Source: Bacteroidales bacterium
GTDB taxonomy: Bacteria > Bacteroidota > Bacteroidia > Bacteroidales > GCA-2711565
DNA: 64,000 nt
Assembly (NCBI GenBank): GCA_963674935.2
Contig: CAXXWZ010000007.1
Span: forward strand, 748,710-812,709
Direction of reading: 5' to 3'
The translations under genes and the position numbers were made by a program. This document shows, one piece after another, positions 813 to 59,908 of this stretch. Numbering within the stretch: position 1 is the first letter of the stretch; every line of letters begins with the position of its first letter. Below the pieces are notes generated by a model. That model searched no databases. It saw only the letters and a program-made list of their open reading frames with translations, and had not been told where the DNA came from.

Positions 813-835
813 GTCTCAAAGATAAGGTTTATCGC

Positions 836-1686
836 TTAGCTGATAAATCCATTTTCAACATTCATCGCAACTTCAATTAATTCTTTGGTTGAAATTGCAG
901 GAGAATTCATATTCCTTTTGATGTCATCCAGATATTGGTGTAGTTTTTCGGTATCCTTTTCTTTAATAATATCGAGTAAATTACCTAACTGATCTTTAAT
1001 TCGCTCTAACTGATAAGCACTGTGTGGTCCAAATAAAATTTCAGAAATCAGGAAATTATCTTCCCGAAAGTAAACCTTCGGCAATTTTCATGTGCTTATT
1101 GAAAGTTGTTCCGGGCGCATCCTGTTTTCTCATGCAAAGCCGCAAAAACAATGGTGGATGAAAAAGGCACGGCCAAGGAATAAGCAATGGTTTGATCATG
1201 CCCAACAAATGTGTATTCATGAATGCTTAATCCTAGTGAAGTAAAAAAATGAATGGAAGAAATTCTTCCCTATTTCTGAGGATTCTTTAATTATAATTGC
1301 ATGCTGGTTTTTTTAAATTATTTAAGCTTGCAAATGTAGGCCCAAACATAGGGTGGGTTGAAACGAAATCAAAGCCGCTGGTTTTTGTAAAAATTTCTTA
1401 ATCCGTTTTTTAACCGAAGCAATATCCGATAAAATACATGCTTTGGGTAAAAAATGGAATTATTTCTTCAAATGCTGCAATCGTATTTTTTAAGTCGACG
1501 GAATTAATTATATAATTCAGGGCTAAACGTTGAAAATTTCTTCTAGCTTTAATCAGCCTTTGTGTATTAAAAAACATACCTTAATTTAGTCATGTCTTTA
1601 TCAAAAATGGCAACTTCATGTTGAAGGCAAAGTGCGTCGGATAACCAAATTCCCATTTTTCCCGCACCAATAATTAATATTTTCAT
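836..1686 (-). pseudogene. tyrA: prephenate dehydrogenase (TyrA), broken by several frameshifts as assembled
   Basis: Reverse translation from ATG 1684-1686 gives MKILIIGAGKMGIWLSDALCLQHEVAIFDKD (Rossmann GxGxxG). Later frames give ...VSTHPMFGPTFASLNNL..., and the 82-aa ORF 836..1084 is the C-terminal tail. The pieces lie in different frames and switch at A/T runs. Last gene of the aromatic operon. Confidence 0.65.
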
Positions 1687-1708: not shown

Positions 1709-2818
1709 TTAGGATTTTTTATTTTTTGATTGCTTTGATTTGTTCATGATTAACTCCTGATGTTTCACAGATTCTTCATGAATTGATTTAAAAACTTTCT
1801 CGCTAAACTCACGACTTAACCCATTAATATTAGCCTGCTTAACTCTTTTTTCCATTATTTCGGTGTATCGGCTTGGTTGGAAAATAGTCACATCGTTTTC
1901 ACTTTTGTATTTCCCGATGTTTTGTGATACTTGCATCCGTTTTCCGAGAATGTCTAGCATGCTGATATCAAGTTTATCAATCTCAGCTCGTAAATCTTCC
2001 AGGTCGTAATTAATTTTTGGATTGTTATTGGTGCTTCGAATAATTAATTTGTCAAACACTTTCTTTAAATCTTTAGGGGTTAATTGCTGGCCGGCATCAC
2101 TCCATGCATTGTCAGGATCAATATGAGATTCGATCATCAATCCATCAAAGTTCAAGTCCATGGCCTGCTGCGATACCTCAAGGATTAAATCACGTCTTCC
2201 CGAAATATGACTTGGATCGGCAATAATTTGAAGTTCAGGTAAGCGTCGTTTTAAATCGATAGGAATTTCCCAATTGGGTTCATTTCTGTATTTGGCTTTA
2301 TTGTATGTTGAAAATCCGCGATGAATGGCAGCAATTTTTTTAACCCCCGCACGATTAATTCTTTCAATTGCACCTATCCATAAATCTAAATCAGGGTTAA
2401 CGGGGTTTTTAATTAAAATTGGAATATCAACTCCTGTTAATGCTTCTGCAATTTCCTGCACCGCAAACGGATTTGCTGTTGTTCTGGCACCAATCCAAAG
2501 CATATCTAATCCATACTTTAATGCTTCGTAAACATGAACTGCTGTAGCAACTTCTGTGCCGATCAGCATGCCTGTTTCGGCTTTTACTCTTTTCATCCAG
2601 GGTAATCCTTTTGTTCCAACGCCCTCGAATGAACCTGGTCGTGTTCGCGGTTTCCAAATCCCTGCTCTGAATACTTTGGTACCCATTGCTGCCAATTCAT
2701 GTGCGGTTGTGAGCACCTGTTCTTCTGTTTCGGCACTACATGGGCCATTTATAAAAAGTGGTCTTTTTAATTCCTGGTCGTTAACCTTTAATGTTTCAAT
2801 TTCAATAATTGGATTCAT
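1709..2818 (-). CDS. bifunctional 3-deoxy-7-phosphoheptulonate (DAHP) synthase / chorismate mutase type II
   Basis: 369-aa ORF. The N-terminal about 270 aa resemble a KDO8P/DAHP-synthase type I-beta TIM barrel (GPCSAE, ADPSHISGRR). The C-terminal about 90 aa resemble chorismate mutase (LRAEIDKLDISMLDILGKRMQVSQNIGKYK). 4-nt overlap with the upstream aminotransferase. Confidence 0.85.
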   Translation of the reverse strand: MNPIIEIETLKVNDQELKRPLFINGPCSAETEEQVLTTAHELAAMGTKVFRAGIWKPRTRPGSFEGVGTKGLPWMKRVKAETGMLIGTEVATAVHVYEALKYGLDMLWIGARTTANPFAVQEIAEALTGVDIPILIKNPVNPDLDLWIGAIERINRAGVKKIAAIHRGFSTYNKAKYRNEPNWEIPIDLKRRLPELQIIADPSHISGRRDLILEVSQQAMDLNFDGLMIESHIDPDNAWSDAGQQLTPKDLKKVFDKLIIRSTNNNPKINYDLEDLRAEIDKLDISMLDILGKRMQVSQNIGKYKSENDVTIFQPSRYTEIMEKRVKQANINGLSREFSEKVFKSIHEESVKHQELIMNKSKQSKNKKS

Positions 2819-3981
2819 GATAATTTAATATTAGATATGATTCGTGTTTTTGCGAGTTGTAATTTTTCTTGTGAATTGCTCAATGAAATTCGGATATACT
2901 TTTTCCCTTCTTCACCAAAAATAAACCCGGGAGTAATATATACACCAGTGTCATTTAACAGCTTTTCGGAAAAAGATTCAGAGGTCTCGAAGGCATTCGG
3001 TATGTACGCCCAAACAAACATTCCGACCTGTCTTTTTTGATAAGTGCATTTTAGAATATCCAGCATTTCATGAGCAATTTTTTGTCTTTTAGCGTATTCC
3101 GTATTTAGGTTTTTATACCAGGATTCTGGATTGTTCAGGGCAGAAACTGCTGCTTTTTGTAAGGGTTTGTAAATGCCGGAATCAGCATTGCTCTTGATTT
3201 TTAAAATGTGTTGAATAAAAGTTGAATTGGATGCCAGCATTCCCATTCTCCATCCCGCCATATTGTGCGATTTACTTAATGAGTTTAATTCAATGGCGAT
3301 ATTCTTGGCACCTGCAATTGATAAAATACTCATCGGTTTTTCATTCAGAATAAAACTGTAAGGATTGTCGTTGCATAAAACGATATCATGTGCCCGCGCA
3401 AATTTTAAGAGTTCAATAAAATCAGTTTTTTTAATTTGAGCTCCGGTTGGCATGTTTGGGTAATTAATCCACATCATTTTTACATTGCTTAAATCGCGAG
3501 TGGATAATTCTTTTAAATCAGGAAGCCAGTTTAATGATCTTTTTAGCTTATAAATCATGGGCTCAGCTCCGATCATTTTACTAACAGCTGCATAAGTTGG
3601 GTATCCGGGATCAGGAATTAGCACCTTGTCTTCTGGATTAAGAAAGGCCAAGGAAATGTGTAAAATACCTTCTTTTGATCCAATAAGTGGCAGGATCTCG
3701 CTTTCTGGATCGAGCTCAACTTTAAATTTTGATTTGTACCAATTCGCGTATGCATTTCTTAGTTCAGAAATCCCGTTGTATGGTTGATAGCCATGGACAT
3801 CTGACTTTTGGATCTCTTGTTGTAAAGTTTCGATGGTTGCGTTTGAAGGTAAAAGATCAGGATTTCCAATCCCTAAATTGATGATATCTTCACCCGCTGC
3901 ATTGCGTTTCGCAATCTCCTTTAATTTTGTAGAGAAATAGTATTCGCTAGTAATGTTTACTCTGTTTGCCGGTATTATCAT
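2815..3981 (-). CDS. class I/II PLP-dependent aminotransferase (probable aromatic/prephenate aminotransferase)
   Basis: 388-aa ORF with an aminotransferase fold and PLP-lysine motif SLSKSHNMAGWR. Sits between pheA and the DAHP synthase gene. Confidence 0.8.
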   Translation of the reverse strand: MIIPANRVNITSEYYFSTKLKEIAKRNAAGEDIINLGIGNPDLLPSNATIETLQQEIQKSDVHGYQPYNGISELRNAYANWYKSKFKVELDPESEILPLIGSKEGILHISLAFLNPEDKVLIPDPGYPTYAAVSKMIGAEPMIYKLKRSLNWLPDLKELSTRDLSNVKMMWINYPNMPTGAQIKKTDFIELLKFARAHDIVLCNDNPYSFILNEKPMSILSIAGAKNIAIELNSLSKSHNMAGWRMGMLASNSTFIQHILKIKSNADSGIYKPLQKAAVSALNNPESWYKNLNTEYAKRQKIAHEMLDILKCTYQKRQVGMFVWAYIPNAFETSESFSEKLLNDTGVYITPGFIFGEEGKKYIRISLSNSQEKLQLAKTRIISNIKLS

Positions 3982-3990
3982 TATAAAATT

Positions 3991-4864
3991 TTAATGAAGT
4001 GAACTAATTTGTTGAGATTCGATTGGTGTTACGGCTGCCGGATATTCACCCAATATTCTGAGATCTTCAACATATTTACCAATACTTTGCACCGCCCTTT
4101 CATATTGTTCATTTTTATCAAAAACCATATCGATATAAAATAGGTAAGTCCATTCCTGCCCAACCAGTGGTAGCGATTGGATTTTTGTAAGACTAATATC
4201 GAAGGCCGCTAAAACAGTAAGTAGTTGTGCCAGACTTCCTGAACGATGCGAAAGTGTTACCACCCACGAGGCTTTGTTAATTTCATTATTGTCAGCAAAT
4301 TTTTGATTCCTTTCTTCGATCGGGCTTACAATTAAAAACCTGGTAAAGTTTCGTTTGTTGGTTTCGATTCCTCTGGCCAATAGTTTTAATCCAAAACTTT
4401 TGGCGGCAATTTCATTCGAAATGGCGCCTCGACCTTTGATTTGCTTTTGGCTTATTTCATATGCACTGTATGCTGTATCATCACTGTTTATTAATTTGAT
4501 GTGAGGATATTTTTTGAAAAATTCTTTACATTGCTGCAAGGCCATTGGGTGCGAATGTACTTCGGTTATATTTTCAATCTTTTGTCCTGGTAGCGCCATC
4601 AAACTATGTTTTACTCTGAGTTTATATTCTGCTCGGATAAAAAGATTCGACTCTCTGAGTAAAGTATAATTGCCCAAAATACTACCCACAAGGGTGTTTT
4701 CAATAGCTACTATACCGTAATCTGCTTTAGAGGAGTGGATGGCATCAAACAATCCTTCGAAAGTCATACAGGGTACAATTTCAATTTCTTCGTTTTTAAA
4801 ATACTGATGGGCCACTATCTCATGAAATGAATTGTAATACCCTTGAATTCCTATTTTTTTTCAT
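3991..4864 (-). CDS. pheA: prephenate dehydratase; N-terminal 16 codons out of frame because of a T8 run (4854-4861)
   Basis: 274-aa ORF 3991..4815 has the PDT domain and a C-terminal ACT domain. Upstream, ATG 4862-4864 reads MKKIGIQGYYNSFHEIVAHQYF..., the typical PheA N-terminus, only if one T of the 8-T run is removed (874 nt = 3n+1). Confidence 0.85.
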
Positions 4865-4963
4865 CCGTAAATTAATTTTATTATAAGGTCGGATGGAACT
4901 CGCATATGAGTTTTTCATCCTTGTTTACATTTAACGAACATGCTCGTTTCATATTTGTAATGC

Positions 4964-4994
4964 AAAAAAAAATCCGCTTCTTTTAGAGCGGATT
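4964..4994 (-). terminator. attenuator terminator 2 (proximal to pheA)
   Basis: Minus-strand RNA AAUCCGCU-CUAAAAGA-AGCGGAUU followed by a U-run (plus-strand A9 at 4964-4972). Its 5' arm can alternatively pair with GAGCGGAUU (5024-5032), which overlaps the leader-2 stop codon. Confidence 0.75.
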
Positions 4995-5030
4995 GGTTAA
5001 AAATTTATTTAAATAAAACACATAATCCGC

Positions 5031-5093
5031 TCATTCCTCAGGGTAACCAAAGAAGTAAAAATAAAAGCTAAAATATGTGTTGAATGTTTGCAT
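5031..5093 (-). CDS. putative leader peptide 2, MQTFNTYFSFYFYFFGYPEE (6 Phe, 4 Tyr)
   Basis: Own translation of the reverse strand: ATG 5091-5093, TGA 5031-5033. 10 of 20 residues are Phe or Tyr. The stop codon overlaps the antiterminator segment. Confidence 0.7.
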   Translation of the reverse strand: MQTFNTYFSFYFYFFGYPEE

Positions 5094-5103
5094 GTTCTGT
5101 TTC

Positions 5104-5134
5104 AAAAAAAAAAGTCCCATCAAAATGATGGGAC
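5104..5134 (-). terminator. attenuator terminator 1 (distal)
   Basis: Minus-strand RNA GUCCCAUC-AUUUU-GAUGGGAC followed by U10 (plus-strand A10 at 5104-5113). The 5' arm can alternatively pair with GAUGGGA (5167-5173), which overlaps the leader-1 stop codon. Confidence 0.75.
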
Positions 5135-5172
5135 TTTTAAATTATATTTTTTAAGTATATACAAATTCCCAT

Positions 5173-5226
5173 CTATCCTTTTGGATAAAAATAAAAATAG
5201 AAAAAAGTATAAAAATTGTTGTTCAT
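5173..5226 (-). CDS. putative leader peptide 1, MNNNFYTFFYFYFYPKG (5 Phe, 4 Tyr)
   Basis: Own translation: ATG 5224-5226, TAG 5173-5175. 9 of 17 residues are Phe or Tyr. Confidence 0.7.
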   Translation of the reverse strand: MNNNFYTFFYFYFYPKG

Positions 5227-5244
5227 AGTTTTGTTTTATGCGCA

Positions 5245-5276
5245 CAAATGTAAGGCGTTTTTATGGGTTAATGCAA
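5245..5276 (-). promoter_or_regulatory. Bacteroidota sigma-A type promoter (TTG-N21-TACATTTG) for the aromatic operon leader
   Basis: Minus strand reads ccTTGcattaacccataaaaacgcctTACATTTGtg. The -7 box matches TAnnTTTG exactly (5245-5252) and the -33 TTG is at 5274-5276. About 18 nt separate the -7 box from the leader-1 ATG. Confidence 0.5.
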
Positions 5277-5346
5277 GGTTTTTATGCAAAAATATTATTA
5301 AAAGAAATTTCTGCTTAGATAAGTTTCAGATTCTAAAACTCTTAGC

Positions 5347-6804
5347 TTACTGTTTCCGCTGTATTTGATCCAAATAATCATTGATTGGCTTTTGAGTATT
5401 GGTGTTTTTTGAAAGAATCCAGTCAACAGTAGGCTGCATATAAGATATTGATGTATTGTAAGGATTCTGATCGTAAAGTGCAAATTTTGAGTTTTCTTGA
5501 GCGTATAGATAGTCGGTTGTAAGTACCGTGTAAACCTCATTTGTTTCAATTGGTGTTCCATCTAAAAGTTTATACCCTCCAATGGTGGTCATGCCTCCAA
5601 TAATAAGATTTCCGATACAATCAATAACCTGCGCACCTGTGAGTTCAATTTCGTACAAAGTGTTTGTGAATGGTAATAACCCAACAATAGTCGCAAGCGT
5701 AATATCCCCTGGCAGAATGTCTTGCCTGATGCCTCCAGCATTTGTCATTGAAATAACTGCTTTGGGGTATGCTTCGAGCCAGGAATCAGCGACCATGTTA
5801 TGCATGGCTGCTGAATTCTTGTCAATATTTTCATCACAATATCCAATGACCAACGATAGGTCTTCTTCAGCCTTCAACTTCCATTTATCAACAACTGCAC
5901 TTACCTGATTGCTCACAGCGTTGGTAGCCGGATTGTTTACAATCTCACTAGATATTACGTTTGTAATTTTTGTTGTTTGATTATATTCAATAACTACTTT
6001 GCAATAATTTTTTAAGCCTGAACCTGATTCGATGAGTGAGACCCCGTTCACTGATTTCGATACCACCTGATGCGTATGCCCTCCAGTTATTAAAGTAACG
6101 CCAAGCGATTTTGCAACCGGTGCCAGTTGTGTCATCTCATACTCACCAATGTGTCCGGTAACAATAATAACTTCGGCACCTAAATCTTTTACGATAGGTA
6201 TATATTCATTAATCGCATCTGCATAAGATATAAAGTCAAAATCTGCCACAAAAGCAGGGAAAGTAGTTGATGGTGTGCTCTGAGATGCAAGACCAATAAA
6301 AGCAACCTTTACCCCATCGGCTTCTTCAATGATATAGGGTTGGGCAAATGAAGGTATCTCACCTGTACTTTTGGCGCGAATGTTTGCTGCAATTAAAGGG
6401 AATTCAAGCAATCTGATATTTTTGGTCAATCCTTCAATTTTAAAATCAAATTCATGATTTCCGATGGTAGCAACATCATATTCCATTTCATTCATTACTT
6501 CAACCATCGATTCGCCCTGAAACCAGGTTGAAATGGCAGGTCCTGTCCACATGTCTCCTCCACTCACAATTAAAAATGAATCAGCTCCGTTGTACCCTTC
6601 TTTGGTTTTCCATAGTTCGAACATTCCTGCTGCTCCACCAAAAGTTTCATCAGCTTGTAGCCATCCATGTTCATCGTTGGTGTATAAAATAACTATGCTT
6701 TTTAGCTTAGATTCCTGATTCTGAGTAGGAATATTATCTCTGTTATTACAGGAGAAGAGTAAGACTACAACAAGAGCGAATGATATTTTAATGAAGTTTT
6801 TCAT
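5347..6804 (-). CDS. bifunctional metallophosphatase / 5'-nucleotidase lipoprotein (UshA-like)
   Basis: 485-aa ORF with lipobox VLLFSC. Calcineurin-like metallophosphoesterase motifs (NDEHG, GGDMW, GNHEFD, GHTH) and a C-terminal 5'-nucleotidase domain. Confidence 0.85.
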   Translation of the reverse strand: MKNFIKISFALVVVLLFSCNNRDNIPTQNQESKLKSIVILYTNDEHGWLQADETFGGAAGMFELWKTKEGYNGADSFLIVSGGDMWTGPAISTWFQGESMVEVMNEMEYDVATIGNHEFDFKIEGLTKNIRLLEFPLIAANIRAKSTGEIPSFAQPYIIEEADGVKVAFIGLASQSTPSTTFPAFVADFDFISYADAINEYIPIVKDLGAEVIIVTGHIGEYEMTQLAPVAKSLGVTLITGGHTHQVVSKSVNGVSLIESGSGLKNYCKVVIEYNQTTKITNVISSEIVNNPATNAVSNQVSAVVDKWKLKAEEDLSLVIGYCDENIDKNSAAMHNMVADSWLEAYPKAVISMTNAGGIRQDILPGDITLATIVGLLPFTNTLYEIELTGAQVIDCIGNLIIGGMTTIGGYKLLDGTPIETNEVYTVLTTDYLYAQENSKFALYDQNPYNTSISYMQPTVDWILSKNTNTQKPINDYLDQIQRKQ

Positions 6805-6839
6805 ATGTCGAATTCGTAAATTAAATTAAACACAATTTG

Positions 6840-8807
6840 TTACTTAACAAATTTAGCGGTTAGTGTTTTGCGATCTGTTTTAATGATTAGCAAATACATA
6901 CCATGAGTAATTTTGCTGGCATCGATACGAGAATTGTCAAATACTCCCTGGGTAATTATATTGCTTTGTAAATCAAGAATTTGATATTCACCTTGCTCAA
7001 CATTTCGCAAATTTATAAAATCATTAACAGGATTGGGGTAGAAAATTATTTCAGTTTCAGTATTCCCTAAACTTTCAATCCCGACATTTGAATCCCAATA
7101 TTCACCTATCTTATTCCCCCATAAATATTCAGCTAAATCTGGAAGGTCGATAAATGGGTTCCTGTTTTTTTGCCAATTGTAAATGATATTGTTCCGGTTC
7201 ATTTCAAAATCATCCGGTGGATCCTGACGATGCCATACGATTAATGAATCTAAATCACCCAATTGCCCGACAGTATAATTATCAGGATTACCTGAAACCA
7301 CATCAAGTGCATTATAGCGGATGCTCATAAAAAAAATGCTTCTGGCAACATCTCCTTTCCAGCTTCCATGATTCCCCTGAGGGCCACTGTATTCTTCACC
7401 ATAATCTTTATTCGATCGGATTGAGTTTTCTGTATAATCAGAAGCTCGAAGTGAATGAGCATCTGAATGTCCATGCTCAATATGATCAGCACTTGTATTC
7501 ATATAGAGGTCAATTCCATCAGAATAAAAGGAAGTTCCGTCAGAAAAACCTCCCCTTGATTGGGGATAAATATGTTCTCTGTTCCAGTACCCTGTTGAAG
7601 TTGTTCCCGTTTGCTGTAATGATTTGTCGCGACCTTCTTCTGAGTACAAGAGCCAAACAGATAAACTGTTGGATGGATCTTGATCAGCTTCTTTTAAGAT
7701 CGCCCAAATATCCCCGTAGTTTTGGGCTCGAACCGTGTATGGATCGGCGATAATATTTTGAATGGCATTTTTTAAATCCTGGCCTTGAAGATTGGAAAGT
7801 GAACGGTAATAATTAAGGTTAGCAGTGCTGGCGACCATACCATAGGTCGGATTAAGAGGCGTTCCCCAATCACTTCCTGTTACATCATCATCTAATATTT
7901 TAATTGAGTAGTTGTTATTTATCACCGTAACATCTGCAGGGATATTAACGATTTTTACTTTTAAAAATTCATCTCCTTCGGTTTCTGTATCATTTATTAA
8001 GATAACTCTTGTTGATATAGATGTTGTCCCATTTAATATAGTTATATTATTATCTGATGTAAAATCATTTGAATTAAAGTCTCCATTTATAAGTGTAAAG
8101 GACAATGCTAGATTTTCATCCATTGCCACATCTGAAGTAAAAACAATATCAAATTCATCCCCTTCAGTAAAACTGGTATTGGAAGCTGAGATGGTAATTC
8201 TGTATTTGGTTTCAACCGTTGATCCGTCATTAGGTTGTCCGGGCGTTGGTTCTTTAACACTATAAGTGCCGTCTCCATTATTTTGAATTGAATGTTCGTT
8301 TTTATTTCCGTTCTCGTTTTCGTTAATTTGTTGGCTTTGGCCTAAAACACTTAATAATCCGGTGTCATCAGGATCGTCTGTATCATAAACAAGTGCATCG
8401 ATTAAATTGTTCCCCGTTGCCGGTGTTCCCATCGGAAAATCTGAAGCACTGGCTTGATAAATTGCAACAGCATCCGAACCATTTTGCAAGGTATTTAAAG
8501 GGAAAATAATTGATGGTCCCGGCTCCACATCCGTGTTTCCAACAAGAAATATTCCGTTAGCATCTGTAGCATATCCATTTAAATCGATGGTATAATAACT
8601 GATGTCTCCATTGCCATTGTACAATACAATGATATAACCGTCTAAACTAAAATTGGGTGTTGCGGATTTCAATTCTATAAACTCTAAAGCATCATTTATT
8701 GGTGTACTTGGCGTATCGGCATCTATTTCATTTATTATTAAGTTTTGAGAAAAAACTGTACTTAAAAAAAGCATTGAGAATATTGCAAAAAGCAGGGGAG
8801 CCTTCAT
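6840..8807 (-). CDS. secreted endonuclease I family nuclease with lamin-tail (LTD) and Calx-beta domains and a T9SS C-terminal sorting domain
   Basis: 655-aa ORF with a signal peptide. N-terminal LTD-like segment (LIINEIDAD...EFIELK). Calx-beta-like repeat (ILNGTTSISTRVILINDTETEGDEF). Endonuclease I motifs (NREHIYPQSRGG, HSLRASD, NRNPFID). C-terminal FYPNPVNDFINL... resembles a Por secretion tail. Confidence 0.85.
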   Translation of the reverse strand: MKAPLLFAIFSMLFLSTVFSQNLIINEIDADTPSTPINDALEFIELKSATPNFSLDGYIIVLYNGNGDISYYTIDLNGYATDANGIFLVGNTDVEPGPSIIFPLNTLQNGSDAVAIYQASASDFPMGTPATGNNLIDALVYDTDDPDDTGLLSVLGQSQQINENENGNKNEHSIQNNGDGTYSVKEPTPGQPNDGSTVETKYRITISASNTSFTEGDEFDIVFTSDVAMDENLALSFTLINGDFNSNDFTSDNNITILNGTTSISTRVILINDTETEGDEFLKVKIVNIPADVTVINNNYSIKILDDDVTGSDWGTPLNPTYGMVASTANLNYYRSLSNLQGQDLKNAIQNIIADPYTVRAQNYGDIWAILKEADQDPSNSLSVWLLYSEEGRDKSLQQTGTTSTGYWNREHIYPQSRGGFSDGTSFYSDGIDLYMNTSADHIEHGHSDAHSLRASDYTENSIRSNKDYGEEYSGPQGNHGSWKGDVARSIFFMSIRYNALDVVSGNPDNYTVGQLGDLDSLIVWHRQDPPDDFEMNRNNIIYNWQKNRNPFIDLPDLAEYLWGNKIGEYWDSNVGIESLGNTETEIIFYPNPVNDFINLRNVEQGEYQILDLQSNIITQGVFDNSRIDASKITHGMYLLIIKTDRKTLTAKFVK

Positions 8808-13709: not shown

Positions 13710-16319
13710 TTAAAAATTAAATTTTAGATTGAAGCTAAACGTTCGTCCAAAGCCCCAATTTCCTTGAAATGTTGAGAGGTTATGATTGCTTCCATCTTCA
13801 CCCCGCATCATGTATTCTTTATCAAATAAATTGAAACAACTCAGACCTGTGAAAATATCGTAGTCAGCTAATTTAAAGTTGTAACCTAAATGGCAATCTA
13901 CAAGACTGAAAGATGGAAGTTTATAGGACTGTTCGCGATCGTTAGGATTGAAGCGTGAAGTAGGGTCAAAATCAGCATAGAGACGATCATTATAGGTGTA
14001 ATTGAAACTGAAGTCGATAAGATCAAAGATTTTGCTTTTTATAAAAATACCCAATTGTGTTTGTGGTGCATCACCAACATAAAGCCCGTTTGCATAAACT
14101 TCTGTTGTATCAACCACAGCATTGTTCTCATTAAAAAGTTCAGCTACTACATCATTTTTCCATTTCCAGTCACCAAGAGTTGCCATTATACCAACACTAA
14201 GTTTCTCGCTAATTGTTTTCTCAAATTCCATCTCAATTCCTTTATGAATTGCATCAAGTCCTCGAACCAGCGCACGGGTTTGAGATTGATCTTCTAATAA
14301 AATATATTCCTTCGAAAGAAAAGAAATGTTGTGCCAGTTTGTATAATAAGCGTTCACGCTAAAACGCTGATTGTGATTTAAAAAACCGTATCCAATTTCC
14401 ATCGAATAAATGTTTTCGTTGCTGATGTTTAGCGAAGGAACATTAGTAAAATTACCGTAAATAAATTTAAAGTATGGTGCTTTTGAGTAGAAAGCAGAGT
14501 TTAAATAAATTTTGTTTTTGGGATTAAGGTGATAACTCATTCCTCCTTTTATATCAAATCCAACTTTGCTAATGCTTTCGCTTTTGATGTCGGTGATGTA
14601 ATTATATCTGTCTTCTCTCTGGTAACTGGTGAATGAAATACTGGAAGCGATGAAACTGTTAAAATTTTTATTGGCATATTCAATCTGACTGAATAAATTG
14701 GTGAAATTGATGATGGCTCCATTATCAACTTTTGTTACATCTCCCACTTGTTTTATTTGATTTCTGCCACTCACACCATCAACGGCCCAAGCATAATCAT
14801 CAATCCAAAATTCACCGCCTAATAAATCTCTCACCTTTTCTTGAAGCTTCGATTTAAAGTATCGTTGATGGATTCCTCCAATAAATTTAAATTTATCATT
14901 GATTTGATAATCGAGGCTTGAGAGGATTCCTGTCCAAACATGACTAGCTAAAAAATCGGTTTGGATAATATTTGAATATCCATTTATATTTTCACCATTA
15001 GCCAAGTTATAGTTGGGCTGATTTCCTGTATTTAAACCATAAATTCCATCCCAATCAATCTGCTGACTGGCATTTCTGAATGAAAAAATAGATGGGCCGT
15101 AAATATAATTTGATGGATCGTAGTTAAAAGATTCAGCCCATTTTCCACCACCGTAACCGTATGAAAAATAAGCAGACGTTGCCAAAAACATTTTATCGTT
15201 AATTTTCCAATAGTGGTTAAGATTTGCTTGAGGTTTGTGGTAATAATTTTCGGAAATGTTGTTTAGTTTTCCATTGTAACTGCCCCAATCTTTATTGAAT
15301 TTTATGCCATGCTGTTTCACTTCATCATTTGAGAGTAAAAGGTTACGCTGGCCATGTTTTTCGGGAGCACCCAAAAGTGTAAAAGTCATTTTATGATTTT
15401 TATTGAATTGTTTACTAGCCGATAAAAAATATGCCCAGGCATCAACATAGGTTGCATCAACATAGCCGGGGCCAGAAGTGTGTGAGCCCAAGAACGTAAT
15501 GGCCCATCCATTATCCAAAAGGCCTGAAGACAAACTAATGGTGTTTTTTTTATTACCATAACTACTTATTGAATGAAGGAAAGATCCACCCTTTTTAGCA
15601 TTTGTAGATTTAGTAATAATGTTGATGGTTCCACCTATAGAATTTAATGCAACTTTTGATGCACCTATTCCTTTTTGTACCTGAATCATTTCAGTGGCTT
15701 CTGCAAGCCCAATCCAGTTGTTCCAATAAACCAGGCCATTTTCAACGCTACTAATTGGGATCCCGTTGAGGAGTAGTGCAACATTTTCTTGTTTAAATCC
15801 TCTTAAGCTTACTTTGGCATCGCCGCTACCGCCACCGGTTCTGGTTGCATAAATTCCCGGAATGCTTTTCATGATTTCAGGATAGGTTTGATCGCCCAAC
15901 TCTTTTTCAATCACAGCCGATCTTATGTTTGAAACTGAAACGGGTGTGTTGTTGTCTGTAACAATCGAAGAGATAATATTAACTTCAATTAAATCGATTG
16001 ATTCGGGTTCAAGAGATAAATTACCCAATTCGATTAAATGATCAGAACCACCTGCTAGCACTATCGTTTGAATCTTAAAACCCAGCGAACTCACAATTAA
16101 TTTTTGTGGTCTGGATTTAAGTTCTAAACTAAAATTTCCTGAATAATCTGTAATCGTACCGATTGATCTGTCGCTGGATAAATAAATATTTGCACCCGGA
16201 ATTCCTTCAGAGTCAATACTACTAATAATTTTCCCTGTAATCGAGAACTGTGCCCAAATGTTGGTTGTAATTAAGCTTAGGGTGAGCCCCCAAATAAGTG
16301 TAAAAATTTTTCTTTTCAT
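13710..16319 (-). CDS. TonB-dependent receptor (CarboxypepD_reg + plug + barrel), FMN-riboswitch controlled; candidate riboflavin receptor
   Basis: 869-aa ORF with the same architecture and many shared motifs as 9206..11770 (for example YYHKPQANLNHYWKINDK versus FYFKPQTSLNHYWTINEK). Ends ...FSFNLKFNF. Preceded by the riboswitch and terminator described below. Confidence 0.85.
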   Translation of the reverse strand: MKRKIFTLIWGLTLSLITTNIWAQFSITGKIISSIDSEGIPGANIYLSSDRSIGTITDYSGNFSLELKSRPQKLIVSSLGFKIQTIVLAGGSDHLIELGNLSLEPESIDLIEVNIISSIVTDNNTPVSVSNIRSAVIEKELGDQTYPEIMKSIPGIYATRTGGGSGDAKVSLRGFKQENVALLLNGIPISSVENGLVYWNNWIGLAEATEMIQVQKGIGASKVALNSIGGTINIITKSTNAKKGGSFLHSISSYGNKKNTISLSSGLLDNGWAITFLGSHTSGPGYVDATYVDAWAYFLSASKQFNKNHKMTFTLLGAPEKHGQRNLLLSNDEVKQHGIKFNKDWGSYNGKLNNISENYYHKPQANLNHYWKINDKMFLATSAYFSYGYGGGKWAESFNYDPSNYIYGPSIFSFRNASQQIDWDGIYGLNTGNQPNYNLANGENINGYSNIIQTDFLASHVWTGILSSLDYQINDKFKFIGGIHQRYFKSKLQEKVRDLLGGEFWIDDYAWAVDGVSGRNQIKQVGDVTKVDNGAIINFTNLFSQIEYANKNFNSFIASSISFTSYQREDRYNYITDIKSESISKVGFDIKGGMSYHLNPKNKIYLNSAFYSKAPYFKFIYGNFTNVPSLNISNENIYSMEIGYGFLNHNQRFSVNAYYTNWHNISFLSKEYILLEDQSQTRALVRGLDAIHKGIEMEFEKTISEKLSVGIMATLGDWKWKNDVVAELFNENNAVVDTTEVYANGLYVGDAPQTQLGIFIKSKIFDLIDFSFNYTYNDRLYADFDPTSRFNPNDREQSYKLPSFSLVDCHLGYNFKLADYDIFTGLSCFNLFDKEYMMRGEDGSNHNLSTFQGNWGFGRTFSFNLKFNF

Positions 16320-16371: not shown

Positions 16372-16453
16372 ATTGAATTATCATTTATTGATACACATAA
16401 TATAAATCTCTGAGCGAGACATATATATGAATAAAAAGTAAATCGATAATATT

Positions 16454-16579
16454 CTTCTTTCATCCAGACTGTACTGTCGGTACCTGAGTTTCACAGGTTC
16501 AGTCTCGCCTTTGGCAAGAGTCGCGGACTTTAACCGCCGGTCGGGAATTTTTGCATTTGCAAATCACCCTGCCCCGAAG
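16454..16579 (-). promoter_or_regulatory. FMN riboswitch (RFN element) aptamer
   Basis: Minus strand reads CUUCGGGGCAGGGUGA[UUUGCAAAUGCAAA]AAUUCCCGACCGGCGGUUAAAGUCCGCGACUCUUGCCAAAGGCGAGACUGAACCUGUGAAACUCAGGUACCGACAGUACAGUCUGGAUGAAAGAAG. It contains essentially all invariant RFN blocks (CUUCGGGGCAGGGUGAAAUUCCCGACCGGCGGU..AGUCCGCGA ... ACCGACAGU..AGUCUGGAUG..AGAAG) and a closing P1 helix UUCUUC/GAAGAA. A TATTTTTG -7-like box lies at 16593-16600. Confidence 0.9.
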
Positions 16580-16668
16580 AAATTAATCAGTGCAAAAATA
16601 GTATTTTAATTAATCAAAAAAGAGCAAAATCCTAATTTAGAATGGGTATTTTTTTTGTGCGAAAAGTT

Positions 16669-59092: not shown

Positions 59093-59908
59093 AAATAATA
59101 ATTTTGGTTAGATTATATTTAAATAATTAATGTGAAATATTTATACCTTCTTTATTATAAAAGCATGTATTTAGTATAAAAAGTATAAATAGGGTAAGTA
59201 GTTAATGTTTTTTCATAGGCAATACGTTTTGTTCTTAAATAGGGGTTAGTGATTCGATTTATTAATTTGAGTTTATGAAAATAAGAAAAAATCATAAAAA
59301 ATCATAAAAAAATATTGAAAGACTGACAGCATGTATAAGTTAACTTACTAATTCTCATAGAAAATGTAATGCTTTTTACTTTTTAAATTATTAATAATAA
59401 TGACAGCTTTTGAAATCTTCTACTATCCTATAAAACAGTTAAGTAATAATGATAATTTACTTTTAAATTAAATGTTACTTTTTTTAGTCAAAGGAATGCA
59501 TCCATAATTATAATGAGCTGATTATCTTATTTTTATTTTTTTAAAAAATGTTAGAAAATTAACATAAAATGTTAGGAATCCTAAAGAAAAGGAGTAAAAT
59601 GCTAATAAATAGTTACCAAAAAATATCTCTGTTTTTATAAAAAATGGCGTATAATTTTAATAAATGTGCAGAAAATCGACAAATATGTAGTTTTCATTGA
59701 CACAAATGCATTAATAATACATCTAATAATGGATGGATGTTATTAACAGACTTAATAATTATTTAAATCTTCAGACACTTCAATTTTTATATATAATAAG
59801 TTTAAAGGTTGGTGATTTTTTAGCACATTTTATTTCAAAACTAGAGATATAAAAAATAACATTGAAATAGTTTGGTAACAATACCTATTAACAATTGAAT
59901 TTTTATAC

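Follow-up and report, generated by a model that had tools for sequence, protein, structure and literature searches.

A pair of Phe/Tyr-rich leader peptides and terminators, very probably serial transcription attenuators, precedes the aromatic amino-acid operon of a Bacteroidales bacterium

In E. coli pheL-pheA and in the classical enterobacterial trp, his, leu, thr and ilv leaders, a short open reading frame (ORF) carries many codons for the amino acid under control, its stop codon lies just before or over a segment 2, and a 2:3 antiterminator and a 3:4 terminator are mutually exclusive. Leader-peptide attenuation requires fast ribosome loading and a ribosome close behind RNA polymerase, and leaders with mixed codons are known from thr (Thr/Ile) and ilvGMEDA (Leu/Val/Ile). 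Here we describe two elements probably of this kind, lying one after the other (units 1 and 2) on the minus strand 5′ of pheA, in a 64,000-nt stretch of a Bacteroidales genome (assembly GCA_963674935.2, contig CAXXWZ010000007.1, positions 748,710 to 812,709; this whole stretch is called the window, and positions are counted from its first letter). They are very probably a pair of serial ribosome-mediated (leader-peptide) transcription attenuators controlling the pheA-aminotransferase-DAHP synthase/chorismate mutase-tyrA operon. An initial annotation, made from the letters of the window, had proposed two serial attenuators sensing Phe and Tyr codons before the aromatic operon, and this proposal was supported by conservation, covariation, coding constraint and a promoter motif in about 80 related loci.

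The same annotation had regarded such a design as unusual for Bacteroidota, which was overstated, because Bacteroid-trp and a Phe/Tyr (F/Y) leader attenuator of Flavobacterium psychrophilum pheA precede it. Bacteroid-trp is a Bacteroidetes cis-regulatory leader that precedes an operon for amino-acid biosynthesis (Weinberg et al. 2010, PMC2864571), and Guerin et al. name it a tryptophan peptide leader RNA (PMC9723704 supplement). It differs from the leader in the window in amino acid and operon. In F. psychrophilum, a leader-peptide attenuation element was annotated at pheA-aspC3 (Guerin et al. 2021, ISME Commun, PMC9723704, Table S7 / SI D9), with the pheA leader seen as a separate 5′ transcript with condition-dependent read-through (PMC9723704 supplement). 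This element and the leader in the window share the phylum, an operon headed by pheA and an aminotransferase gene, an F/Y-rich leader (MNTNNTFYSNNSFYFYWNIGRDCYMVI in F. psychrophilum) and a hairpin followed by a U-run. On inspection of the F. psychrophilum sequence, the logic of segments 2, 3 and 4 was alike, with GGGAUUGU near the ORF end pairing with the terminator 5′ arm ACAAUCCC. Unlike the leader in the window, it comprised a single unit, its antiterminator strand lay inside the ORF (called here the “long form”), and it belongs to class Flavobacteriia; the likeness was judged by layout. Attenuators in Bacteroidetes/Chlorobi have reportedly been predicted as well (Vitreschak et al. 2004; Lopatovskaya et al. 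2010). The mechanism is thus classical and already described in the phylum, and the doubling alone is somewhat unusual.

The F. psychrophilum ilvE 5′ region (437 nt, PMC9723704 Table S7) contained three successive Ile-rich mini-ORFs, MRKFNIIPSIIIAIVIITTAKGML, MTTNTIIIISIIIRSFE and MTTNTIIIIISIIIRSFE, each followed by a hairpin and a U-run; Table S7 names only the first (25-aa) peptide. With three serial units at ilvE, serial units are not confined to the pheA operon, and arrays of leader-peptide attenuators may be more widespread in Bacteroidota. In B. thetaiotaomicron, a transcriptome paper reported small ORFs “reminiscent of leader peptides” (PMC7366714). Prephenate dehydratase was not mentioned in the B. 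thetaiotaomicron transcriptome supplements, and a scan of Bacteroides loci gave no curated BTnc small-RNA family corresponding to the attenuated leader.

Compared with E. coli pheL-pheA, the leader in the window had no Shine-Dalgarno sequence, mixed Phe and Tyr codons, two units in series and no firm 1:2 helix, and it stayed below the threshold of the Rfam family Phe_leader. This model (RF01859) scored 21.4 bits (E = 2.6) on unit 1, below its gathering score of 55, and Trp_leader (RF00513) scored 29.5 bits (E = 0.0034) on unit 2, mainly over the terminator and below its gathering score of 41. Bacteroid-trp (RF01692) gave no match at E <= 10 in positions 3500-7000, and no T-box or riboswitch family was among the matches at E <= 10. 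At its gathering score, Bacteroid-trp also matched neither the window nor any of six other related loci scanned. The element is covered by no Rfam family. Serial sensors in one leader are likewise seen in tandem riboswitches and T-boxes. In the Salmonella mgtCBR leader (Lee and Groisman 2012, PMC3641672), two short ORFs lie in series and each controls a decision in transcription elongation. The two units of the window differ from these in being of like F/Y content and in having a canonical intrinsic terminator each. The mgtCBR ORFs are not duplicates and reportedly sense different signals, ATP and proline.

As listed in Table 1, the two F/Y-rich mini-ORFs, each with a terminator and a complementary segment overlapping the stop codon, were all found on the minus strand where the initial annotation had placed them, and the consensus Bacteroidota promoter that it had read 5′ of them (TTG, 21 nt and TACATTTG) was borne out. 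Phe or Tyr is encoded by 9 of 17 codons in leader ORF 1 (5 Phe, 4 Tyr) and by 10 of 20 in leader ORF 2 (6 Phe, 4 Tyr), and this mixture matches an operon with both pheA and tyrA. ORF 2 starts 10 nt past the U-run of terminator 1. In both units, segment 2 begins at position +2, counted from the stop codon's first base, and its complementarity to the terminator 5′ arm exceeded that of shuffled sequences (p = 0.005 for GAUGGGA of unit 1 and p = 0.0 for unit 2). Against dinucleotide shuffles, the fold of the 291-nt leader had z = -5.08. The 64-kb window (both strands) held three mini-ORFs with 8 or more F/Y codons at a share of 40% or above, against 0.18 per window expected from first-order Markov simulations; these were both leaders and one at 59332. 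The third mini-ORF (MLSVFQYFFMIFYDFFLFS, 59273-59332, minus strand) was rejected as a chance ORF, being without a terminator hairpin and within a T-rich direct repeat; it lies upstream of a SusC/SusD-like pair.

The best 80 pheA loci were retrieved by PheA alignment from GTDB species genomes, all of them Bacteroidales or Marinilabiliales-like, and five further close relatives (L081-L085) were taken from assemblies. When the upstream regions of pheA were aligned, the F/Y mini-ORFs were found to be conserved and the hairpins to covary, as the proposal of attenuators would have it. An F/Y-rich mini-ORF (e.g. MTHVAYFYSFYFYFFGFSNQKEVGL, MTRFFTYFYFYFYFSR and MKSLYNTYFFFFYYFYFSNKVKREFVCIR) occurred within a few hundred bases 5′ of pheA in about 72 of the 80 loci. 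Under strict criteria, a GC-rich hairpin and U-run followed the leader in 63 of 75 units, and most of the units failing these criteria had visibly imperfect hairpins. A segment complementary to the terminator 5′ arm was detected in 92% of 73 units (p <= 0.05 against shuffles). In the “short form”, the type of the window, this segment begins between +1 and +5, counted from the stop codon's first base, and in the long form it lies within the last ~8 codons of the leader ORF. Because the long-form antiterminator lies inside the ORF, these peptides have G-rich C-terminal tails (...KEVGL, ...KSGS).

Each antiterminator segment fitted its own terminator arm better than those of other units (mean score 11.8 versus 8.9; reached in 0 of 10,000 permutations). 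In MAFFT alignments, the terminator helix (29 sequences) was paired in 95.8% of cells, against 30-55% for slid controls, and had compensatory changes at 8 of its 10 pairs, and the antiterminator helix (15 sequences) had 89.6% of cells paired and four compensatory pairs, against 27-44%. A covariance model based on the antiterminator gave 72 matches in 669 kb, all on the sense strand and directly 5′ of pheA; it matched unit 1 at 5103-5205 (33.2 bits) and unit 2 at 4961-5066 (35.2 bits). These results indicated that both of the mutually exclusive helices covary.

To the F/Y cores, 69 distinct ORFs contributed 762 codons, and codon position 1 was T in 679 of them. Among the bases of these codons, C stood at position 3 in 212 cases and at position 1 in two (TTT 315, TTC 71, TAT 164 and TAC 116). 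As C was almost solely at synonymous third positions, the reading frames appear to be under selection, and by this pattern of bases the leader ORFs show coding constraint.

In 59 of 64 related loci, the -7 motif TAnnTTTG ended 5-60 nt (mostly 17-35) 5′ of the first leader ATG, against 0.04 per locus expected by chance; it was kept in L001, L002, L081 and L082. No TAnnTTTG occurred between stop 1 and ATG 2 in nine of nine tandem loci, which ruled out a promoter of its own for unit 2. Since there was a single promoter motif and none between the units, the two units act in series on one transcript. To judge from the motif spacing, this transcript probably has only ~12-15 nt ahead of leader ATG 1, and Shine-Dalgarno sequences are missing from the leaders.

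We propose the following course of events. Transcription would begin at the sole promoter, ~12-15 nt 5′ of leader ORF 1, and a ribosome would translate the F/Y-rich leader. If charged Phe-tRNA and Tyr-tRNA were ample, the ribosome at the stop would cover GAUGGGA (unit 1) or GAGCGGAUU (unit 2); with segment 2 covered, the terminator hairpin would form and RNA polymerase would halt at the U-run. If either charged tRNA were scarce, the ribosome would stall in the F/Y run, at least 13-14 nt 5′ of segment 2, and the free segment 2 would pair with the terminator 5′ arm as an antiterminator, so that the polymerase would read through. A transcript extended past terminator 1 would meet an equal test at unit 2 and, with two tests in series, expression of the operon would be roughly the product of two read-through probabilities.

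A ribosome covers ~12 nt downstream of its A site, and the geometry was judged with this footprint. With the stop codon in the A site, the ribosome would hide the whole of segment 2 in both units. Segment 2 is preceded at a distance of at least 17 nt by the main F/Y runs and at 13-14 nt by the last Tyr codon. Given the footprint, the spacing in both units agreed with the initial annotation in that a ribosome at the stop would mask segment 2 and one stalled on F/Y codons would leave it free. Of the three-segment design proposed there, the segment over the stop complementary to the terminator 5′ arm was confirmed; the design may comprise three segments or four, as unit 2 can form a 1:2 helix. 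This pairing, between a candidate segment 1 within ORF 2 and segment 2 with its 3′ flank, formed in the minimum free energy (MFE) fold of the untranslated leader. The AACACAT/ATGTGTT pairing persists in L001 and L083 and is less strong in L081 and L082, but L002 and L003 do not have it. RNAalifold on the relatives proposed a weak, G-U-rich 1:2 helix. For a 1:2 helix, unit 1 offers only the small adjacent hairpin AUCCAAAAGGAU, which is retained in L002 and L003 as AUCUGAAAGGAU with a one-sided C-to-U change giving a G-U pair. In these folds, the hairpin at the end of ORF 1 may serve as a pause or an auxiliary helix.

Comparison of folding energies gave opposite results for the two units. In unit 2, the antiterminator (-12.5 kcal/mol) was more stable than the terminator (-10.5), and the equilibrium probability of the terminator was <=0.15 with segment 2 free and 0.38-0.63 with segment 2 masked; on this model, unit 2 would act like an equilibrium switch. 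In unit 1, the terminator (-17.3 kcal/mol) was more stable than the 7-bp antiterminator (-8.9, or -10.2 in context).

Several points weigh against attenuation by both units as proposed. The equilibrium probability of the unit 1 terminator was 0.999 whichever segment was masked. As this terminator is far more stable than its antiterminator, antitermination in unit 1 must, by these calculations, be kinetic, and unit 1 might be a nearly constitutive terminator. For a kinetic course, the 7-bp helix would have captured the loop-proximal half of the terminator 5′ arm by the time its 3′ arm was transcribed; antitermination in the E. coli trp leader is likewise kinetic. At the last Tyr codon, a stalled ribosome would be 13-14 nt short of segment 2, a borderline distance for the segment to stay free. 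The 5′ untranslated region of unit 1 is very short and has no Shine-Dalgarno sequence, and prompt ribosome loading there is assumed. For the antiterminator helix in the 72 units, 89.4% of cells were paired and nine of nine pairs compensatory (slid controls 30-56%), in a covariance-model alignment that was fitted to the structure and leans towards it. Finally, that the ribosome stalls, how read-through depends on tRNA charging and how large it is, and what doubling may bring are all inferences.

Among close relatives, the arrangement varied. Both units were intact in the window, L001, L002, L081 and L082 (PheA identity 86-97% to the window). L003 (84%) kept the unit 1 hairpins, its ORF 1 was without ATG and had in-frame stops, and the promoter motif was lost. 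In L083 (87%), only unit 2 was visible, on a contig ending 239 nt 5′ of pheA. L084 and L085 (78-80%) had only a unit-1-type attenuator with a GTG start, (M)NNTLFTYFYFYWYLSQKMGI. These variant units are located at L003:3700-3860, L083:1-240, and L084 and L085:1250-1500. Orthologues of ORF 1 were thus present in L001, L002, L081 and L082, and those of ORF 2 in these four, L003 and L083; in L003 and L083, the working unit was only of the unit 2 type. As relatives have both units or either alone, each unit would be a working module sufficient alone, and on the evidence of these genomes the double state is evolutionarily labile. Single units of Marinilabiliaceae resembled unit 2 in the peptide but unit 1 in the terminator arm, and with only the unit 1 type in L084 and L085 and only the unit 2 type in L083, either unit may be the ancestral one.

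Tandem F/Y units were also found in the Paludibacteraceae-like loci L032, L040, L054, L056, L064 and L068 and in L063. L032 (“Flexilinea sp.”) and L064 (“Clostridiales bacterium”) had Bacteroidales-type PheA and tandem leaders nearly identical to those of Paludibacteraceae; their taxonomic labels are probably wrong or the contigs mis-binned. A division of labour between the units for Phe and Tyr was unsupported, the F:Y codon ratios being 5:4 and 6:4. The most likely benefit of doubling would be multiplicative read-through with a lower leak and a steeper response. We tentatively suggest, as a possibility short of an even chance, that serial attenuators are a recurrent and selected Bacteroidota design, by which the response to starvation for Phe/Tyr would be multiplicative, steeper and less leaky. 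In the window, unit 1 with its very strong terminator would then serve as a kinetic gate, and unit 2 as a near-equilibrium switch.

The units may be genuine attenuators and their tandem layout still be without a function of its own, i.e. neutral and transient, with one unit doing nearly all the regulation; unit 1 might then be mainly a terminator or insulator against read-through from the upstream 5′-nucleotidase gene. A neutral or insulating role for unit 1 is a serious rival, one that we consider conceivable rather than probable. It agrees with the close relatives that live with either unit alone, among them L003, which lost ORF 1 and the promoter motif and kept the hairpins, with a unit 1 terminator that forms at equilibrium whatever is masked, and with a terminator scan that called none between the upstream gene (end 5347) and leader 1. 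It does not readily explain why ORFs, antiterminators and terminators are all intact in five genomes at 86-97% PheA identity, nor that Paludibacteraceae-like loci and L063 have tandem F/Y units of independent origin or persistence, nor that the published ilvE leader of F. psychrophilum holds three serial units.

Two further explanations deny the attenuators themselves. Translation of the leader could act after transcription, through coupling or reinitiation, mRNA stability or Rho and not through terminator choice. pheA begins just 13-50 nt past the terminator in most relatives, and leader-gene reinitiation has been proposed for Bacteroidetes (PMC4833913); however, the units end in a canonical GC-rich hairpin and U-run, both this hairpin and the mutually exclusive helix covary, and 60-130 nt separate the leader stop from the start of pheA, with unit 1 of the window lying 246 nt upstream of that ATG, which makes this explanation quite unlikely. 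Least credible of all is that the mini-ORFs are chance products of T/A-rich sequence, the hairpins ordinary, and the regulation due to a protein, tRNA (T-box-like) or a riboswitch. The region is AT-rich, the window holds a third, terminator-less F/Y mini-ORF, and translation of the leaders is a prediction. Against this, F/Y peptides with a start codon, a kept frame and C changes at third positions only recur in ~72 loci, the stop and the antiterminator keep the same relative placement across loci, only 0.18 such ORFs are expected per 64 kb, and the models of T-boxes and riboswitches gave no match at E <= 10 in the leader. Serial leader-peptide attenuation is the preferred explanation of the locus.

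Of the operon content assigned in the initial annotation, PheA, the aminotransferase and the DAHP synthase/chorismate mutase were confirmed by Pfam (Table 1), and TyrA was recognisable with its frame interrupted. Compared with the intact gene of L001, tyrA had ten +1 insertions and zero deletions, mostly in A/T runs. The pheA ATG was out of frame owing to an A8 run (4861-4854) where relatives have A7; minus one A, the protein was 78-91% identical over 100% length to eight 290-aa homologues. The essential gene tuf was interrupted at ~34760 (minus strand) at GCCCCCTGA, with C5 for C4, and most other genes of the window were intact. The frameshifts in tyrA, pheA and tuf are probably +1 homopolymer errors of assembly or polishing, and with this reading the operon content as first assigned is right in substance. 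That tyrA is a true pseudogene, leaving a Tyr-sensing leader without Tyr synthesis, is unlikely, because all ten indels are +1 and mostly in homopolymers and the A8 of pheA and C5 of tuf are alike. No TyrR/TrpR-type repressor of the operon in Bacteroidota came up, and no search aimed at one was made.

An insertion of ~88 nt (4865-4952, minus strand), flanked by ATGAAA repeats and unique in the window, lies between terminator 2 and the pheA ATG and shifts pheA to 107 nt from the terminator. It contains a 23-codon ORF (MKRACSLNVNKDEKLICEFHPTL) and is absent from L001, L002, L003 and L081-L085. Elsewhere in the window, an FMN riboswitch (95.7 bits; 16448-16585, minus strand) was found directly 5′ of an 869-aa TonB-dependent receptor ORF (13710-16319, minus strand) with Plug and CarboxypepD_reg domains, which suggests that the riboswitch controls outer-membrane uptake of riboflavin or a related compound.

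Table 1. Positions of the leader elements and operon genes in the window
Feature	Position	Strand	Description
Bacteroidota sigma-A type promoter	5245..5276	(-)	TTG 5276-5274, 21-nt spacer, -7 motif TACATTTG 5252-5245
Leader ORF 1	5173..5226	(-)	ATG 5226 to TAG 5175-5173; encodes MNNNFYTFFYFYFYPKG
Small hairpin of unit 1	5175..5186	(-)	AUCCAAAAGGAU; end of ORF 1; predicted from MFE folds to stack on the antiterminator
Unit 1 antiterminator 5′ strand	5167..5173	(-)	GAUGGGA; overlaps stop UAG; pairs with UCCCAUC 5133-5127
Unit 1 intrinsic terminator	5104..5138	(-)	Terminator scan call; core GUCCCAUC/GAUGGGAC; arms GTCCCATC (5134-5127) / GATGGGAC (5121-5114); stem extendable to 12-13 bp over 5138-5110; U10 at 5113-5104
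Leader ORF 2	5031..5093	(-)	ATG 5093 to TGA 5033-5031; encodes MQTFNTYFSFYFYFFGYPEE
Unit 2 candidate segment 1	5065..5081	(-)	Within ORF 2; can pair with 5032-5017 (segment 2 and 3′ flank)
Unit 2 antiterminator 5′ strand	5024..5032	(-)	GAGCGGAUU (DNA GAGCGGATT); overlaps UGA; pairs with AAUCCGCUC 4994-4986
Unit 2 intrinsic terminator	4964..4994	(-)	Terminator scan call; AAUCCGCU/AGCGGAUU; arms in DNA AATCCGCT (4994-4987) / AGCGGATT (4978-4971); U-run to 4964 (nine-T run 4972-4964)
pheA (prephenate dehydratase)	3991..4864	(-)	ATG 4864-4862; longest clean ORF 3991-4815; Pfam PDT 1.1e-50
Class I/II aminotransferase	2815..3981	(-)	Pfam Aminotran_1_2 3.8e-60
Bifunctional DAHP synthase/chorismate mutase	1709..2818	(-)	Pfam DAHP_synth_1 and CM_2
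tyrA (prephenate dehydrogenase) homologue	835..1685	(-)	Frame broken by 10 single-base insertions

The 72 units gathered form a large covarying family of pheA F/Y leaders across Bacteroidales for which Rfam has no model and which could be curated. In many Bacteroidales of the gut and the environment, the family shows where the regulatory region of the aromatic operon truly begins at its 5′ end. Relatives with two units, with either alone or with a decaying first unit are a natural series on the value of doubling. With a leader ATG only ~17-35 nt from the -7 motif, these leaders offer a simple natural reporter for studying the coupling of transcription and translation. Such putative attenuators were nearly universal among the pheA loci surveyed, in a phylum without Shine-Dalgarno-led initiation, which argues that coupling works there. 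If the proposed mechanism is true, transcription and translation would be tightly coupled on Shine-Dalgarno-less, nearly leaderless mini-ORFs in Bacteroidales.

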